Below, piece by piece: positions 30,940 to 59,870 of a stretch of 64,000 nt of DNA. Source of the DNA: Candidatus Paceibacter sp. GTDB lineage: Bacteria; Patescibacteriota; Minisyncoccia; UBA9983. Made by a program: the position numbers and the translations under genes. Below the pieces are notes generated by a model that was not told where the DNA came from, did no database searches, and worked only from the letters and a program-made list of their open reading frames with translations. The stretch is taken from assembly GCA_013360865.1 (NCBI GenBank), contig JABWAS010000005.1, positions 507-64,506 on the forward strand, read 5' to 3'. Position 1 is the stretch's first letter. The number at the start of each line of letters is the position of its first letter.

Positions 30940-30964
30940 TTTTTGGAAGACGAGTAACTCACAA

Positions 30965-31010
30965 AAACAATCCCGTCCGCCAGCTGGCGGACGGGATTGT
31001 TTTTGTTTTT
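30965..31010 (+). terminator. rho-independent terminator directly after rplK
   Basis: AAAAACAATCCCGTCCGCCAGCTGGCGGACGGGATTGTTTTTGTTTTT: 16-bp stem, T-run. No rplA follows. Confidence 0.8.
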
Positions 31011-31704: not shown

Positions 31705-31772
31705 AAAATTTAATATGTTTGAAAGTTAAAAAGTGTATTTTTCCAAGCATCCAAGGACCGTCCTTGGATAGA

Positions 31773-36466: not shown

Positions 36467-36487
36467 TTATCCACATTGTTATCCACA
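36467..36487 (+). promoter_or_regulatory. two tandem perfect DnaA boxes (TTATCCACA x2, 12-bp phasing)
   Basis: GTTATCCACATTGTTATCCACATTT seen directly; a one-mismatch reverse box (TGTGAAAAA) lies in the AT-rich stretch downstream. Confidence 0.6.
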
Positions 36488-39800: not shown

Positions 39801-40317
39801 GAGTACAAGTAACGGCATCGGTCTTTATAAGATCACCGTTAACGTCGCTACTTCGTCCGCTTCTGCGGTTTCCGGTACCACGACCCTTACGAACTTGAAG
39901 GTATTTGCCTACACCGATTCAGGCTTCAGTTCGCCGGTAACCGGCTTTACCAACGGTCAGGTTGTGAGCACTATCGCTGGTTTGATTAACGGAGACAACG
40001 ACGCGGTCTTGTCGTCAATTCTGCAGATACCGGCTGGTTCTACCTACTACTTCAAAGTAGTCGGAGACACCACATTGACCGCCGGCACGGGCACGTTCTC
40101 TGGTTCGGTAACGACAAAAGTTACCACCGACACGGCTCATCCGTCATTGGCCACTTATCTGGGCAATGCCGCCGGAGTTGACGCCGATGCCAGCGCGGAC
40201 GCTTTCATCTGGTCGGCTAACGCGACAACAACGTCCAACGCCAATCATCTTGACTGGTCTAACGGCCACGGAGTCTCAGGTTTGTCAGGCTTGACCTCAG
40301 TTACCATTTCCAAGTAA
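36823..40317 (+). CDS. large secreted/surface protein with N-terminal peptidoglycan-binding (PG_binding_1-like) domain and ~1000 aa Ser/Thr/Gly-rich beta-rich region
   Basis: Signal peptide; SFTRSLTVGSQGSDVTCLQDYLRSGGY...ITRSAVAAWQAANGV resembles PG-binding domain 1; long low-complexity T/S/G/V repeats. The tracked ORF starts at 36730; start here chosen at internal Met. Confidence 0.6.
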   Translation: MDKFKTTKVGKATSVIVGLATAAWLSVGSLAVPMTTYAQTTDETIALLLAQIAKLQADLAALQAGATTGTAEKCSFTRSLTVGSQGSDVTCLQDYLRSGGYFNRASTGYFGSITRSAVAAWQAANGVSPAAGYFGPISRAKYDSLVSVVVPPASSAGVGASSASSVAVGTGGLTISAATQPLVTFAVERATRVPFTNFTLTAGSQDVTITGVNVERTGLAADGVFAGIVLLDESGSQLGIAKTFNSEHKATIGDAVTIKAGQSKTFTVAGNMNTDASGYLNSNNGLTAYLSVTGVVTSATVSGLLPISGAGHSINGNLTIGNVTNDRGSLDPNSSTGAVITKNIGTTNYTFAAVKFTPDSVEKIRVKSIRWNQSGSAGASDLANIKTYIDGAAYDTVVSSDGKYYTSTFGDGIVVDKGGNIEISVKGDIVGGSGRTIDFDIYRNTDVYMVGETNKYGITPPNGSSDPTDDSSNFSSGNPWYDASQISVSAGTITVTKATSVASQNIAENVLNQPLGGIVVEVKGEPISANNLIFHFQLSSGDGDVEDLTNITLVDENGTVAAGPADGSGADVDYGTVTFSDTVTFPVGTKTYTLKGKLGTNFANNQTVVASTTPSSDWSNVTGQTTGNTISGSSITSSVITGNTMTVKSAVVTLSVSTNPVAQTVVSGAQGFTFANYLFDATASGEDIKFGSLPLEYNTGGATATNINNCILYDGETALNTGSNVVNPTAAGSSTTFTLDSAGLVIPKGTTKTVALKCNIVAGGTGTYRWGYDSGSSPSATGVTSGQSATITENDSAGQAMALTSGGTLTVEEDSSQPNYAAVNANSSVEIGVIKFTAANEAINLRKLGLQLTNTASSSVSDLTQLTLWDGSTQVGSLVLTGSTGTSTLTSDFIVPKDGSKLMKIKADLAAVGTALAGTQGAFIAVDYIGAGNAEGVGQSSGTTINSTSGATSFAGVRMFRSTPIVAQLTVPSQTLVTQSETNVYRFSVKADPSTSNGIGLYKITVNVATSSASAVSGTTTLTNLKVFAYTDSGFSSPVTGFTNGQVVSTIAGLINGDNDAVLSSILQIPAGSTYYFKVVGDTTLTAGTGTFSGSVTTKVTTDTAHPSLATYLGNAAGVDADASADAFIWSANATTTSNANHLDWSNGHGVSGLSGLTSVTISK

Positions 40318-40406
40318 TCTAGTTTCCTTGTGACTAGTCCAAACCCCCCCGAAAAATCGGGGGGTTTTGTGTTGCATAAAAAACTTATAATTGTTAAAAT
40401 TTTTCT

Positions 40407-41000
40407 ATGAAAAAAATAGTTTTAGCGATCCTTTCTTTACTGGTTTTATTTGCCGGATATGTTTTTTATAAAAACAATTTTAAGACGCACTTGTCGTTTG
40501 AGTCATTCGGCTTAGCAAAAAAAATAACACCAGCGCCCGAGTTGGGCAGGCCGTTAAAAATAAACGTCGTTTTGGAAGAAAATGTGGAAAAATTATTGGT
40601 TGAAAAAATACACGAAGTGGAATCAAACTTAAAATCAAACGACAAATCCATTGACGACTGGCTTGCTCTGGGAATTTACAGAAAAATGGCGGGCGACTAC
40701 GAGGGCGCGAGGGAAATATGGGAATATGCGAGTTTTATAAGCCCGGGCAATATCACGTCTTTTAATAATCTAGGTGAACTTTACGCTTATTATCTTAAAA
40801 ATAATAAAAAAGCGGAGGAAAATTACAAACAAGCCGTAAAAAATGGACCCGCCTCCATTTACATTTACAGAAATTTCCACTTCTTTTACAAAGATGTGTT
40901 AAAAAATAACACTAAAGCCAAGGCTGTCTTGGAACAGGGCATCGCCGCCAACCCGGGCGAAGCCTCCCTTGACCTCCAAAACCTCCTCAAAAACTACTAA
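40407..41000 (+). CDS. TPR-repeat protein with N-terminal TM anchor
   Basis: 197 aa; repeated Ala/Tyr/Gly TPR-like helices (WLALGIYRKMAGDYEGAREIWEYA...). Confidence 0.55.
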   Translation: MKKIVLAILSLLVLFAGYVFYKNNFKTHLSFESFGLAKKITPAPELGRPLKINVVLEENVEKLLVEKIHEVESNLKSNDKSIDDWLALGIYRKMAGDYEGAREIWEYASFISPGNITSFNNLGELYAYYLKNNKKAEENYKQAVKNGPASIYIYRNFHFFYKDVLKNNTKAKAVLEQGIAANPGEASLDLQNLLKNY

Positions 41001-41012
41001 ACTAAAGGGTGT

Positions 41013-41049
41013 GCCGCCATTATCAAGGTCGGACCTTGATAATGGCGGC
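41013..41049 (+). repeat. REP-like perfect palindrome, family 1, copy 1 (18-bp stem)
   Basis: GCCGCCATTATCAAGGTC-G-GACCTTGATAATGGCGGC; core ATCAAGGTCGGACCTTGAT recurs at 41233-41253 and 41745-41765. Confidence 0.85.
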
Positions 41050-41071
41050 AAAGGGTTTAAAATAATAGGTA

Positions 41072-41761
41072 ATGCAAAGAAGATCAGCTTTTTCCGTTGG
41101 TGAGTATTACCATATCTATAATCGCGGCACAGACAAAAGAGAAATTTTTCTGGATAAGCCCGATTATTTAAGGTTTATTGTTCTGCTCTATATTTCTAAT
41201 AACGTTGACGCTGTGCACGTCAGCAATCTTAAATATCAAGGTCGGACCTTGATGGGAATTTTAAATATAGATAAAAAAGACTCTCTTGTTGATATTGGCG
41301 CCTATTGCCTCATGCCAAACCATTTTCATATTCTTATTAAAGAAAAAATAGATAATGGAATTAGCCAGTTTATCAGAAAGTTATCTACCGGTTACTCAAT
41401 GTATTTTAACAAAAGGTATGAAAGAACGGGGAACTTGTTTCAGGGTAAATTTAAATCTATGCATGTTGATAATGACCAGTATCTTAAGTATCTATTTGCT
41501 TATATACACCTTAACCCAATTAAAATAATTGAACCTGGGTGGAAAGAGTTAGGAATTAGAGAAAAAGACAAGGCAGAATCATTTTTAAAAGATTATGAAT
41601 TTTCAAGCTATATGGATTATGACGGCAACGGCACGGAAAGGGTAGAAGCTAAAATAGTAAAAAAAGAATCTTTTCCCGAATATTTTTTAACGGCAAAAGA
41701 TTTTAATGACATGATAAAAGATTGGTTGTATTATAAAGATACTATCAAGGTCGGACCTTGA
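41072..41761 (+). mobile_element. IS200/IS605-family Y1 (HUH) transposase, REP-associated tyrosine transposase (RAYT)-like
   Basis: HUH motif CLMPNHFHILIKE and downstream catalytic Tyr region (YSMYFNKRYERTGNLFQGKF). The gene is flanked by, and internally contains, the family-1 palindrome. Confidence 0.7.
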
Positions 41762-41765
41762 TAAG
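41745..41765 (+). repeat. REP-like palindrome, family 1, copy 3, overlapping the RAYT stop codon
   Basis: TATCAAGGTCGGACCTTGATA; codes the C-terminal IKVGP-stop. Confidence 0.8.
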
Positions 41766-41807
41766 GCTTGATGAAGAAATTGAGGGTGTTATAATAAAAG
41801 TGATTTT

Positions 41808-42287
41808 ATGAGGTTTTTGAAGGCTAATTACAGGTATTTTTTTATTATTGTCGGGTTTTTGGTGTTTGGTTTTTATGTAACGGCGTTTATTTGGCCGGAG
41901 TATCGCGATTGGAAGTTTTGGCGGGACATACGGCGTGAGGCGGCCAAGTTTGAAAAAATAAGGGAGGACAGGGAAAAAGCGATAGCGGCCGACGCTTACG
42001 GCGGCAAAACACCGCAGGAAACGCTGGATATGTTTATCGCGGCGGTAGAAAAAGGCGACTACGAACTGGCCAGCAAGTATTTTGTGGTGGAAAGGCAGGA
42101 GGAACAACTGAAAGAAATGAAGGAATATGAAAAAGACAATGTTGATTTTCTGCTAGGGGTTATTAAACAATCACGAAAATCACAAGGATATTATTCATCA
42201 GACAAAAAGGTTTTTACGGTTGAAAAACCAGTTTATATTGACTTTACTCTTTATCCAAATAATAACTGGAAGATAAATGAAATCTAG
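41808..42287 (+). CDS. hypothetical membrane-anchored protein
   Basis: 159 aa; N-terminal TM helix; no motif. Confidence 0.4.
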   Translation: MRFLKANYRYFFIIVGFLVFGFYVTAFIWPEYRDWKFWRDIRREAAKFEKIREDREKAIAADAYGGKTPQETLDMFIAAVEKGDYELASKYFVVERQEEQLKEMKEYEKDNVDFLLGVIKQSRKSQGYYSSDKKVFTVEKPVYIDFTLYPNNNWKINEI

Positions 42288-43404
42288 TTTTTTCAAAATT
42301 TCTCTAATCCCGCTGGCTCTGGCGGGATTATTTTTAAACCAAAACGCCTTCGCCTTTGACGACCTGACCACTCATCCAGCGCTGACCGACGAAGTGATTG
42401 ATTTTTACAATTTATTCGCCGGGGAGAAAATAAACAACGAAGATAAGGAAACTATAATCCAAGGCGCCCAAGACGAAGACATCCCGCCGAGGTGGATAAA
42501 CCACTTTTACGACCCTGTGCGCAATCTTGGCTGGTCGGGCCGGAACACAGGTGTCTGGCCGCAAATGCTGGTCCATTATTTTTCCGGCACCGTGCTATCC
42601 AGCGAGTATCCAGTTTCCTCGCTGAACTGGCTGCACAATCAGGAGTTGCAATCAAAGTATTCTCGCTACAAAGGCAACCGCACCTGGGAAAAAGCGCTGT
42701 ATGAATACGCCAAAGGCAATAAAAAGGAAGCTTATTACACTTTGGGCTATATTTTGCACCTGATAGAAGACGCTTCGGTGCCCGACCATACCCGCGACGA
42801 CCCGCACGCCCACGAGATGAGATACGCTACCGGCGATTATGGCAGCCCACTGGAAGAATACGCCAAAAACTTCAACCGCGACAACTTAAACATCGCCAGT
42901 GAGTTAAAAGAGAAAAATTTTAAACCGGCGGAATTTGATTCGGTAGATAAATATTTGACGGCCTTGGCCGAATATTCCAATGGCCGCTTCTTCAGCAAAG
43001 ACACCATCAACGACCCGCTTTATGCTAACCCGAAAATTGTCAGGGAGGATGATAATTTTGGCTATGGTTTGGATAAAAACGGAGAAGAGTTTGAATTGGT
43101 AAAGTTAAGATATGACTTGGATGTAAAAAATAAAGTTATCTTGAAGGAATATTTTTTGCCAACAACTGATATAAATATAAACAACGAAGTACTCAATCAA
43201 TACTTCTCCCGCCTTTCGCGCGAGGCGGTTATTCACGGGGCGGGGGTTATAGAACTGTTTTTCCGCGAAGCCAAGGCCATCAAAAGCGGCCAAAGGCCGG
43301 CGCCGGAAATATTCCGGGAAATGCCTCCGGATCCGGCCAAAGCTCTGATGTTATTTTACATAAATCCGGTGCTGGGCATTATGGCTTACCGGAGAATTCT
43401 TTAA
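42277..43404 (+). CDS. secreted zinc-dependent phospholipase C / S1-P1 nuclease-like family protein
   Basis: Signal peptide; HLIEDASVPDHTRDDPHAHE His/Asp cluster characteristic of the PLC-Zn/S1-P1 fold. Confidence 0.5.
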   Translation: MKSSFFKISLIPLALAGLFLNQNAFAFDDLTTHPALTDEVIDFYNLFAGEKINNEDKETIIQGAQDEDIPPRWINHFYDPVRNLGWSGRNTGVWPQMLVHYFSGTVLSSEYPVSSLNWLHNQELQSKYSRYKGNRTWEKALYEYAKGNKKEAYYTLGYILHLIEDASVPDHTRDDPHAHEMRYATGDYGSPLEEYAKNFNRDNLNIASELKEKNFKPAEFDSVDKYLTALAEYSNGRFFSKDTINDPLYANPKIVREDDNFGYGLDKNGEEFELVKLRYDLDVKNKVILKEYFLPTTDININNEVLNQYFSRLSREAVIHGAGVIELFFREAKAIKSGQRPAPEIFREMPPDPAKALMLFYINPVLGIMAYRRIL

Positions 43405-56473: not shown

Positions 56474-57651
56474 AAGGAATAGGTTTGATGGTCGGAATGA
56501 TCGTGGGGGCGGGCATGTTCGGCCTCCCTTACGCTTTTTCCAAAGCCGGACTGTTCTGGGGCAATTTCCAGCTCGTCGTTTCTTTTCTTATAATCCTGCT
56601 TCTGCACCTTTGGTACGGCGAGGTTTCTTATTACACCAAAGGAGTTCACCGCATCACCGGCTACACCCGGATGTATCTGGGTAAAAAAGCCGAGAAGCTG
56701 GCGTTTATAACCACGCTTGGCGCCGCTTACGGTTCCTTGCTTGTTTACGGACTTCTTGGAGGAATTTTCCTGGGTAATTTTTTTGACTTGTTCAACGGCC
56801 GGACGGACGAGTTTTTCTCCATATTCTTTTTTATCGTCGGGGGCGTTTTGGCTTCCTTGAGTTTAAGCAAAATAGGGGAGATAAACTTTATCCTCACCGT
56901 ACCCGTTTTCGGCTTTATCGCTTATCTTTTATACGTGGCCGCGCCGGAAATAAGGCTGGATAATTTCTTTAACGGAACGCCTTATCTTTTAAACAAAAAC
57001 TGGCTGTTGCCGTACGGCGTGTGGCTTTTCTCTTTAAGCGGATTTTCCGTCATACCGGCGGTGCGGGACATATTTTCCGGCCAACCGATAAGCAAATACA
57101 AAAAGGTGATAATCGTCAGCCTGTTTCTGGCGGCGTTTTTTTACCTGATTTTCGTGGCCGCGGTGCTGGGCGTCAATGGGGGCATGGTCAGCCAGGACGC
57201 TTTATCCGGCATGGTGTCTGTTTTGGGCGGCAAGGCGCTGGCCATTGGCTCAATTATCGGTTTCTTCGCCGTGTTCACTTCTTATATCGCCCTGGCCATA
57301 GACGTAAAAAATATCTTTATGTACGACTACAAAATGCCCCAATTCGCGGCTCTTCTGGCGGCGGCGGTTCCTCCTGTGATTTTATATTACATCGGAAGGG
57401 AAGGAGGTTTGGTGATGATGCTTAGTATCATCGGCTCTTTGGGCATGGGAGCTCTGGGAATATTTATAACCCTTATCAGGAGAAAGATGGTAAAGATTCT
57501 CAAAGACGGAGACAAAAGCGACCTCATCGCGGAGATAGACTATAAGAAAATAAAGTTAAGACGGGGTTGGGAGATGGCGGTGCTTGCCGGCATCATCGCG
57601 GCGGTGGCTTATAATATCTGGGATATTGTTGCGGGGTTTGCGGGTAAATAA
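56455..57651 (+). CDS. amino-acid permease-like polytopic transporter (aromatic/hydroxy amino acid permease family-like)
   Basis: 398 aa, about 11 TM helices; N-terminal GxxVGAGMFGLPYAF motif. Confidence 0.55.
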   Translation: MPRLYIKGIGLMVGMIVGAGMFGLPYAFSKAGLFWGNFQLVVSFLIILLLHLWYGEVSYYTKGVHRITGYTRMYLGKKAEKLAFITTLGAAYGSLLVYGLLGGIFLGNFFDLFNGRTDEFFSIFFFIVGGVLASLSLSKIGEINFILTVPVFGFIAYLLYVAAPEIRLDNFFNGTPYLLNKNWLLPYGVWLFSLSGFSVIPAVRDIFSGQPISKYKKVIIVSLFLAAFFYLIFVAAVLGVNGGMVSQDALSGMVSVLGGKALAIGSIIGFFAVFTSYIALAIDVKNIFMYDYKMPQFAALLAAAVPPVILYYIGREGGLVMMLSIIGSLGMGALGIFITLIRRKMVKILKDGDKSDLIAEIDYKKIKLRRGWEMAVLAGIIAAVAYNIWDIVAGFAGK

Positions 57652-57656
57652 AAAAA

Positions 57657-57683
57657 CGACCCCGATTGGCGGGGTCGTTTTTT
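57657..57683 (+). terminator. bidirectional rho-independent terminator
   Basis: AAAAAACGACCCCGATTGGCGGGGTCGTTTTTTAA between convergent permease and rplT. Confidence 0.75.
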
Positions 57684-57749
57684 AAGGTGATTGTTGCCGG
57701 AAACTTGGAAGCTAAACTTCCAATTGGAAGTTTAGCTTCCAAGTTTGAA

Positions 57750-58997: not shown

Positions 58998-59024
58998 CAA
59001 TGTCAAGGTTGAACCTTGACATTG
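58998..59024 (+). repeat. REP-like perfect palindrome, family 2, copy 1
   Basis: CAATGTCAAGGTT-G-AACCTTGACATTG; shares the CAAGGT..ACCTTG core with family 1. Confidence 0.8.
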
Positions 59025-59078: not shown

Positions 59079-59870
59079 CTATTGACGTCGAATGTCAATA
59101 GAATCTTTTATATCAAACTTGCCCACCTTTGTACGCTTAAGTCCCAGTAAAACCGCTCCGGTTTTTAGGTTTTGTCCCAGTTTGTGAGCGATGGATCGGA
59201 CATATGTTCCGCTGGAGCATTTTATTTTTATTCTCGCCACCCAAAATCCTTCTTGTTTTAAGCGATAGCAAATTTTAGGAAGGATTTTTTCTTGCCATTG
59301 TGAGAGTATTTTTTCCTGACGGAAGTCGCCTTGGACGACTTTTATTTTTTTGATAATTTTTTCCAGAAGCTTTTCCGAGCCGACTTTCTTCAGCTCCAGC
59401 AACTTAATTTCATAAATCTCAATCTCTTTTTCCGGGATTTTTATTTCTTTGAGCTTTCCTTTCCGCGCCCATTCAAAAAGCGGCTTGCCTTTGATTTTGT
59501 AAGAGGAGTAGGGCGGAAGCGGCATTTTATTTTTTCCCAGAAATTTTCCCAACCCAATGTCAAGGTTGAACCTTGACATTGGCAGCGGCTGGCGAATTTT
59601 TTGAGGCAGTCCTAAAATGTCGTAAGTATCCGTTTTAAAGCCGAACAAAATTTCGGCTTCGTATTCTTTATCCAGTTTGAGGTATTTTTCTTTTTGCTGG
59701 ATGGCGTCGCCGACCAGCAAAATCAAAACACCTTCCGCCAAAGGGTCCAGCCGTCCGGCGTAAGTTACTTTTTCTTTTTCCGTTTCCGGATGTTTTTGCC
59801 TCAAAATTTTTACCGCGTCCAAAGGCGAAATTCCGACCGGTTTATAGACATTGAAATTTTTTCCCTTCAT
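59079..59870 (-). CDS. truB: tRNA pseudouridine(55) synthase TruB
   Basis: YAGRLDPLAEGVLILLVGDA catalytic-Asp motif. Start chosen at MKGKNF; the upstream part of the tracked 392-aa ORF overlaps obg and is spurious. Carries an in-frame family-2 palindrome at 59555-59581. Confidence 0.8.
   Translation of the reverse strand: MKGKNFNVYKPVGISPLDAVKILRQKHPETEKEKVTYAGRLDPLAEGVLILLVGDAIQQKEKYLKLDKEYEAEILFGFKTDTYDILGLPQKIRQPLPMSRFNLDIGLGKFLGKNKMPLPPYSSYKIKGKPLFEWARKGKLKEIKIPEKEIEIYEIKLLELKKVGSEKLLEKIIKKIKVVQGDFRQEKILSQWQEKILPKICYRLKQEGFWVARIKIKCSSGTYVRSIAHKLGQNLKTGAVLLGLKRTKVGKFDIKDSIDIRRQ
59555..59581 (+). repeat. REP-like palindrome, family 2, copy 2, inside the truB coding sequence
   Basis: Identical 29-nt CCCAATGTCAAGGTTGAACCTTGACATTG; on the truB strand it encodes MSRFNLDIG in frame. 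Confidence 0.8.

Follow-up and report, generated by a model that had tools for sequence, protein, structure and literature searches.

Which protein, if any, reads a palindrome that stands before, inside and at the end of one and the same transposase-like gene, and what keeps its copies alike? This question is raised by a 229-aa open reading frame (ORF) in a 64,000-nt stretch of contig JABWAS010000005.1 (hereafter the window) from Candidatus Paceibacter sp., a member of the Candidate Phyla Radiation (CPR). A 19-nt palindrome, ATCAAGGTCGGACCTTGAT (ATCAAGGTC-G-GACCTTGAT), with 9-bp arms and a central G, is present in three exact copies in and around this ORF (41022-41040, 41235-41253 and 41744-41762). 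Matches to the 15-nt core with up to two mismatches are expected 0.13 times in the window by chance, and the observed count was reached in none of 100 shuffles. Our best explanation, to which we assign a probability of roughly 60%, is that the ORF encodes a domesticated, hairpin-binding Y1 nuclease of the type found in TIRYTs and TIRtrons (tyrosine transposases associated with terminal inverted repeats, TIRs, and the units that they form), which would be autoregulated via its own hairpins and would keep their copies alike.

A sequence-only reading of this DNA had described the palindrome as occurring three times at a Y1-like gene, with an upstream hairpin of an 18-bp stem, a second copy read as YQGRTLM and a third copy coding for IKVGP and the stop, and all of these points were borne out. 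The upstream palindrome is centred at -41 relative to the ATG, and its folding as single-stranded DNA (ssDNA) gave an 18-bp stem with a 3-nt loop (-22 kcal/mol, z = -8.7). The internal copy codes for Y55-QGRTL-M61, and the outer two copies form flanking inverted repeats, the 22-nt segments 41020-41041 and 41743-41764 being 95% complementary. A terminator function of copy 3 was considered and rejected, given that the scan flags the minus strand only and that the T tail is poor. An Rfam scan of 40000-43000 (maximum E-value 1) returned no relevant RNA family. A 7-nt direct repeat, AAAGGGT (41004-41010 and 41050-41056), borders the 39-nt palindrome and resembles a target-site duplication; this repeat could have arisen by chance.

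Comparison with 80 metagenomic CPR loci, encoding homologs 50-72% identical to the window protein, demonstrated that the arrangement recurs. Perfect palindromes of at least 8 bp were found between -70 and 0 of the ATG in 70% of the homolog loci, between +140 and +210 in 30%, and between +630 and +735, at or just past the stop codon, in 50-55%; in most other windows of these loci the figure was 0-5%. A word of 12 or more identical nt was common to the upstream and stop regions in 89% of 73 loci (cross-locus control, 4%), and the upstream and internal regions did so in 47% (cross-locus control, 1%). An internal copy cognate to the locus, with up to two mismatches, was present at +135 to +210 in 26 of 59 loci and in 0 of 354 control windows of the same ORFs, and about 45% of the loci have this in-frame copy, typically at +155 to +170. 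The layout of three palindromes characterises the family, and the internal copy is conserved and fixed in position rather than a local oddity.

The copies are alike within a locus, and unlike between loci and between paralogs. Thirty-six different inner stems were counted among 59 loci, AAGG being found in 45 of the 59, and the core AAGG-N5-CCTT recurs across CPR classes. The same palindrome occurs three times per locus as GACAAGGTTTAACCTTGTC in L052, as CCGAAGGGTTACCCTTCGG in L076 and as CCCAAGGGCGGCCCTTGGG in L078. Two Y1 paralogs lie within a few kb of each other in L071 (10001-10672 and 11563-12231), as also in L101 (6470-7021) and L105 (2689-3111), and such neighbouring paralogs each carry a palindrome type of their own. 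The L071 paralogs are convergent and flank a ksgA/rsmA-like gene, while the second paralog of L101 (34% identical) has the palindrome CTGTTGAG..CTCAACAG, arranged likewise upstream, at +165 and at the 3' end; for paralogs in one locus, identity to the window protein is only 34-55%. That the palindrome is cognate to the gene, as the sequence-only reading had proposed, is supported both by the word shared between promoter and stop regions and by the separate palindromes of the paralogs. Between the window and L022, the proteins are 61% identical and the third codon positions 53% identical, yet both in-ORF copies are 100% identical, which places the in-ORF copies under constraint at the DNA level. 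The 5-nt loop is flipped between very close relatives (L085, L074 and L099 versus L091), which fits recombination or template switching inside the palindromes.

The encoded protein was analysed by profile, motif and structure searches. Its HUH/Y1 identity, likewise proposed from the letters of the DNA, is in agreement with a match to Pfam Y1_Tnp (PF01797) of 42.7 bits (gathering score, 23), and all 60 aligned homologs match the same profile. The HUH motif H84-F-H86 (41321-41329) and the catalytic tyrosine motif Y144-IHLNP (41501-41518) correspond in an alignment to HmH and YinP of 4er8, the structure of Escherichia coli TnpA_REP with a repetitive extragenic palindromic (REP) hairpin, and H84, H86, Y144, N148 and P149 are invariant across the 60 homologs. 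An AlphaFold (AF2) model reached a pLDDT of 85.8, with lower confidence in an insert of ~25 aa that carries copy 2, and a Foldseek search with this model gave 4er8 as the top PDB match (E 4e-6, probability 1.0), followed by the TnpA proteins of IS608, ISDra2 and IS200. When PDB sequences were searched, a 20-sequence profile gave no match and the single sequence gave only 4er8 (E 0.38). By its Pfam match, its fold and its invariant catalytic residues, the product of the gene is a genuine Y1/HUH protein. Its motif set, N83-HFH, F123-Q124, Y144-IHLNP and S178-S179 (SSY) in 229 aa, points to TnpA_Y1 subclass 2.1 and the TIRYT type, a 2.1-like placement that was made by comparison with the motifs in Table 1 of PMC6006769. 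More than 6,700 homologous protein clusters (90% identity) were retrieved, of which the named ones are from Patescibacteria (Paceibacteria, Yonathbacteria and Campbellbacteria).

The insert with copy 2 is located between helix alphaA and strand beta2 and is missing from the 37%-identical protein of L026, whose locus has flanking palindromes only. Read in frame, the palindrome xAA GGx xxx xCC TTx gives [QEK]-G-x-[STPA]-[LF], which accounts for the conservation of G57, a residue that does not vary among 20 aligned sequences and is kept in at least 90% of the 60 homologs. At the other end of the protein, the C-terminal peptide IK[VAGD]xP is common to the closest homologs.

The upstream copy overlaps a promoter-like site. 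In the window, this site matches the consensus at 10 of 12 positions, its -35 hexamer TTGATA is the right arm of the upstream hairpin, and its -10 hexamer ends 8 nt upstream of the ATG. Throughout the family, 45 of 78 loci have a TATAAT-like hexamer that begins at -13 or -12, with the right-arm CCTTG at -37 to -33, and the modal position of the upstream palindrome centre is -39 to -41 (24 of 59 loci). The right arm (TTGACA, TTGATA and similar), taken as a -35 box, is spaced by 17 nt from a -10 box, and 7-8 nt separate the end of the latter from the ATG. The right arm coincides with the -35 box. Binding or hairpin extrusion at this site would block the promoter. The sequence-only reading had not recognised the upstream copy as part of a promoter.

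The genomic context of the gene bears on its mobility. There is only one Y1 gene in the window, and an identical protein is encoded in one genomic context on 23 contigs from many samples (10 of them among the matches listed), 900 bp around the gene being identical in 10 of these contigs. No empty site was found on the 23 contigs examined (10 listed) that carry the identical upstream tetratricopeptide repeat (TPR) neighbour, all of which carry the Y1 gene. In 14-17 of the 80 loci, with homologs 53-72% identical, the surroundings are retained: a gene for a PG_binding protein of ~1,100 aa comes first, followed in some loci by one for a TPR protein, then by the Y1 gene, a gene for a membrane protein of ~205 aa and one for a beta-helix protein of ~1,050 aa. 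In L049 and L092, the TPR and Y1 genes stand in a different order, an indication of local rearrangement between palindromes. One partial match was obtained in a phage collection and only relatives of 21-35% identity in a plasmid collection, which argues against a phage or plasmid origin, and PADLOC gave no defence-system match for the Y1 protein or either neighbour. With its fixed context, its synteny and no empty site found, the gene has the marks of a domesticated, single-copy and vertically inherited one, and the conservation of synteny in very small bacterial genomes argues for a host function. In L039, L045 and L048, an extra cognate palindrome was noted at about -830 to -865 from the Y1 ATG, upstream of the TPR gene, which is thus bracketed by palindromes in several syntenic loci.

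Copies of the palindrome were also located away from the gene. A scan for the exact 19-mer in one genome per GTDB species yielded 28 stretches, where only a few were estimated by chance, and most of them were in Patescibacteria, Saccharibacteria included. The metagenome-assembled genome (MAG) H41-bin038_1 contains a three-copy gene locus (L022) plus the same palindrome on two other contigs; at L022 itself a perfect inverted palindrome doublet lies just before the ATG and another copy ~260 nt upstream. In H41-bin002_1, copies were found on three contigs. About half of the CPR copies are intergenic, and the rest are inside murD, purD, tyrS, leuS and priA. Pfam domain coordinates show no insertion at the palindrome of purD, and for tyrS the matched stretch exceeds the profile by up to 3 residues. 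The matches outside CPR bacteria (in an EF-Tu-like gene, dnaX and nuoF) are probably coincidences of coding sequence. In the flanks of the 80 loci, 31 cognate 15-mers were counted in 483 kb outside the genes (~1 per 15 kb), compared to a chance estimate of ~0.04.

Two further genes of the window are associated with related palindromes. The one inside truB belongs to the family xCAAGG-N5-CCTTGx, yet it is of another type than that of the Y1 gene, and the truB segment is colinear with Thermotoga maritima TruB and 15 CPR TruB homologs, with no insertion. In other CPR truB genes, a different member of the palindrome family occupies the same place, with a 17-bp stem at +285 in L133 (825-859) and as CATCAAGGACGGTCCTTGATG at +313 in L132 (1814-1834). 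The palindrome next to recA is the cognate type of the Y1 homologs in L046 and L048. The truB and recA copies are attributable either to a second paralog elsewhere in the genome, as in L071, or to relics; for the truB type, AATGTCAAGG...CCTTGACATT, a second Y1 paralog carrying the same arms would account for the truB copy. Coordinates are collected below.

Table 1. Features of the Y1 locus, related palindromes of the window and exact 19-mer copies in ORFs of other CPR loci (coordinates of the latter are those of the respective locus).
Feature	Coordinates	Strand	Description
Y1/HUH nuclease gene	41072-41761	+	229 aa; TnpA_Y1 class 2, subclass 2.1-like
Upstream hairpin, copy 1	41012-41050		39-nt perfect palindrome, 19-nt arms, centred on 41022-41040
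Promoter-like site (putative)	41036-41063	+	-35 TTGATA 41036-41041, 16-nt spacer, -10 TAAAAT 41058-41063
Internal copy 2	41235-41253		in frame, TAT CAA GGT CGG ACC TTG ATG = YQGRTLM
3' copy 3	41743-41763		10-bp arms; encodes IKVGP and supplies the TGA stop 41759-41761
recA-adjacent palindrome ATCCAAGGACCGTCCTTGGAT	31749-31769		directly past the recA stop; AAGG-N5-CCTT family
Second truB-type copy	58998-59024		55 nt past the truB stop
truB-internal palindrome CCAATGTCAAGGTTGAACCTTGACATTGG	59554-59582	truB on minus (59082-59870)	29 nt, perfect, +288 from the ATG, codes PMSRFNLDIG
Exact 19-mer in murD	L019 5550-5568		CPR ORF
Exact 19-mer in purD	L028 2870-2888		CPR ORF
Exact 19-mer in tyrS	L035 1775-1793		CPR ORF
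Exact 19-mer in leuS	L027 228-246		CPR ORF
Exact 19-mer in priA	L012 236-254		CPR ORF

Some other repeats were recorded alongside. A DnaA-box-like sequence, AGTTATCCACAG, lies on the + strand 12-50 nt past the 3' hairpin of the Y1 gene in ~22 of the loci L039-L118, an enrichment of ~6-fold relative to the flanks; the unit of hairpin plus CAGTTATCCAC is present on both sides of the gene in L054, L060 and L061, and the 3' flank in the window has GTTATAAT where related loci have the DnaA-box-like sequence. Two perfect DnaA boxes, TTATCCACA (36467-36475 and 36479-36487), are placed 3 nt apart upstream of a 1195-aa PG_binding gene. Two loopless perfect palindromes of 46 nt with 23-bp arms (30961-31006 and 57701-57746; see also 57651-57683) are unrelated to the Y1 palindrome, the second of them lying just past rplT, beside a canonical bidirectional terminator-like hairpin.

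Judging from the structural match to 4er8 and the co-variation of gene and palindrome, the protein probably binds the hairpin of its own locus in the way that E. coli TnpA_REP binds REP. An occupied upstream copy, or a hairpin extruded there, would turn off the leaderless promoter in a negative autoregulation, in which the internal and 3' copies are possible auxiliary sites. Cleavage and rejoining, recombination or gene conversion at the hairpins may keep the copies of a locus identical while lineages drift, and the same activity might occasionally seed or update copies elsewhere. Several points weigh against this model of a domesticated, autoregulated nuclease. Hairpin recognition is deduced from the analogy with 4er8 and from co-variation, part of which could be due to shared descent and gene conversion. 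The promoter, whose mRNA would have little or no leader, is no more than a match to the consensus, and outside the ~40% of loci with a centre at -39 to -41 the upstream palindrome centres are scattered from -18 to -95. There is no further exact copy of ATCAAGGTCGGACCTTGAT in the remaining 62.7 kb of the window, and those at truB and recA belong to types other than the gene's own, so that one enzyme is not obviously responsible for all. No C-terminal helix-turn-helix (HTH) domain (Bac_DnaA_C, HTH_23 or HTH_28-like) was matched by Pfam at E <= 1 in the window protein and the 60 homologs. A count of G·T versus A·C mismatches, bearing on function at the RNA or the DNA level, had only 4 mismatches to work with, the palindromes being perfect.

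A doubtful variant of this enzymatic explanation is that the palindromes did not arrive by insertion but replaced the sequence already there, through a templated, hairpin-directed and Y1-dependent conversion. Copies would then sit at inherited positions (in truB, in murD, purD, tyrS, leuS and priA, and in the Y1 gene) and be periodically replaced by the current cognate type. The colinear palindromes in truB and other essential genes pose the problem of how repeats enter coding DNA at constant length, and the overwriting, if true, would be a sequence-conversion activity of a domesticated HUH enzyme and a new form of concerted evolution that reaches the coding DNA of minimal genomes.

The sequence-only reading had regarded the locus as the classic proteobacterial arrangement, in which a REP-associated tyrosine transposase (RAYT) mobilises the flanking REPs, which fill the genome as REPs, REP doublets (REPINs) or bacterial interspersed mosaic elements (BIMEs). 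The nearest fold is indeed that of E. coli TnpA_REP, the Y-x-x-x-N-P motif is shared, the gene is single-copy and vertical, each paralog has its own palindrome, and some copies are dispersed. This part of the reading was not supported, and we consider it unlikely, because the protein scores 48.7 bits with the NCBIfam profile REP_Tyr_transpos (NF047646), under the cut-off of 80, and has the signature of subclass 2.1 rather than those of 2.2 or 2.5. The GT[AG]G foot is absent from all three copies, the adjoining letters being GGGTG/AAAGG, AAATA/GGGAA and ATACT/AGGCT. Copies also appear sparse: the window has no more than those of the locus and related loci have ~1 per 15 kb, against one REP per few kb in REP-rich genomes. 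Finally, the core is common across CPR classes, whereas REPs are described as species-specific.

It is also improbable that the palindromes are purely cis-acting signals, such as a promoter/operator or cruciform, an attenuator or RNA stem, or a terminator or stabiliser, recognised by RNA polymerase or another factor or acting as RNA, with gene conversion being local only and the Y1 protein acting elsewhere. The right arm as a -35 box, canonically spaced relative to a -10 box that is itself conserved, the 3' copy at the end of the gene and the conserved distance to the ATG are all in line with such signals. The 3' copies, however, are devoid of sense-strand T tracts, and cognate copies are also found far from the gene and inside unrelated ORFs. 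Moreover, one sequence at three functionally different places that co-changes across lineages and paralogs is hard to conceive without a specific reader encoded nearby.

An active, minimal IS200-like insertion sequence (IS), whose hairpins would be the left and right ends of a ~750-bp unit moving as ssDNA, is very improbable: the Y1 fold matches the TnpA of IS608 and ISDra2, the hairpin-gene-hairpin layout and size resemble IS200, and the Y1/TPR order differs in L049 and L092, but there is a single copy in the window, the context of the identical protein never varies and no empty sites were found, synteny extends down to ~53% identity, the motif is Y-x-x-x-N-P instead of Y-x-x-x-Q, and there are no near-identical multicopy genes, the paralogs being 34-55% identical.

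The gene joins a known class, the domesticated Y1 transposases (RAYTs and TIRYTs). Subclass 2.1 was reported to be without REP-like partners, and at least its CPR branch has cognate hairpins. The layout makes the prediction that the protein would bind its own hairpin and repress its own promoter, and that a swap of the hairpin type would abolish both.

How does the arrangement compare with known systems? Subclass 2.1 of Quentin et al. (2018, PMC6006769) corresponds to RAYT Group 1 of Bertels et al. (2017, PMC5581495) and to most TIRYTs, or TIRtrons, of Di Nocera et al. (2013, PMC3733652), and its signature comprises NH[YF]H, FQ, Y[IV]HLNP and a proximal SS tail in ~238 aa (PMC6006769, Table 1). 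Quentin et al. described no REP-like sequences beside subclass 2.1 genes and a distal HTH (PMC6006769); no mention of CPR or Patescibacteria phyla was found in the text of this classification paper, and no paper on such RAYT/palindrome elements in CPR bacteria in the literature searched. In TIRtrons, some TIRs are self-complementary and the repeat families are of low to moderate copy number (PMC3733652). The CPR genes resemble the TIRYTs and TIRtrons in their motif signature, in a length of ~230-240 aa, in the single or low copy number of the gene, and in matching inverted repeats at a fixed distance that may overlap the gene ends, as the 3' copy overlaps the stop codon. They differ from them in several respects: the CPR repeats are perfect palindromes with the core AAGG-N5-CCTT, whereas the described TIRs are mostly GGGGWSAS; ~45% of members have a third, in-frame copy whose position in the ORF is fixed; the -35 box of a putative leaderless promoter is part of the upstream copy; the hosts are CPR/Patescibacteria, among which the gene is widespread; and, compared to subclass 2.1, the CPR proteins have no detectable distal HTH or DnaA_C-like domain. 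A plain TIRtron layout is seen outside the CPR in Acetoanaerobium noterae NZ_CP154629.1 (L119), of the Clostridia, where a 28%-identical gene, unannotated in the record, has 25-nt perfect TIRs, AATCATTAGGGACGGTTCTTTTTGA (509-533 and 1389-1413), that are not self-complementary.

E. coli TnpA_REP, which recognises the REP hairpin as its substrate in 4er8, is the best fold match and shares with the window protein the HUH motif, the single catalytic Tyr in a Y-x-x-x-N-P helix and the status of a single-copy, domesticated gene flanked by cognate hairpins. Unlike the TnpA_REP system, the CPR locus has no GTAG guide, an apparently far lower copy number of repeats and a score under the RAYT equivalog cut-off, and its protein has the ~25-aa insert between alphaA and beta2 and a C-terminal tail of ~80 aa. 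In-frame REPs inside tnpA_REP have been reported for subclass 2.4 only, from Cyanobacteria and Bacteroidetes, where their place is between HuH and Tyr and their length is variable (PMC6006769). Similar to these, the CPR genes contain a cognate repeat inside a transposase-like gene with the frame kept; in contrast, the CPR copy precedes HuH in the protein, its codon position is the same across the family, its length is constant and it matches the flanking copies.

Compared to the IS200/IS605 family (IS200, IS608 and ISDra2), the Y1 fold and the subterminal hairpins on both sides of tnpA are alike. The left-end structures of IS200 also restrict tnpA expression. The CPR gene, however, is single-copy, immobile and syntenic, it has YIHLNP (YxxxNP) and HFH in place of YxxxQ and H[VI]H, and its hairpins are perfect palindromes, which leaves strand and orientation undefined. 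Rickettsia palindromic elements (RPE) and intragenic REPs also lie in frame in intact housekeeping genes (PMC3733652). These elements add 20-80 residues to the protein, whereas the CPR palindromes of truB and purD are colinear, with no detectable insertion. Taken as a whole, the CPR arrangement is best described as a variant of the TIRtron or REPtron, in which the repeats are palindromic, one of them doubles as a promoter and a third lies in frame.

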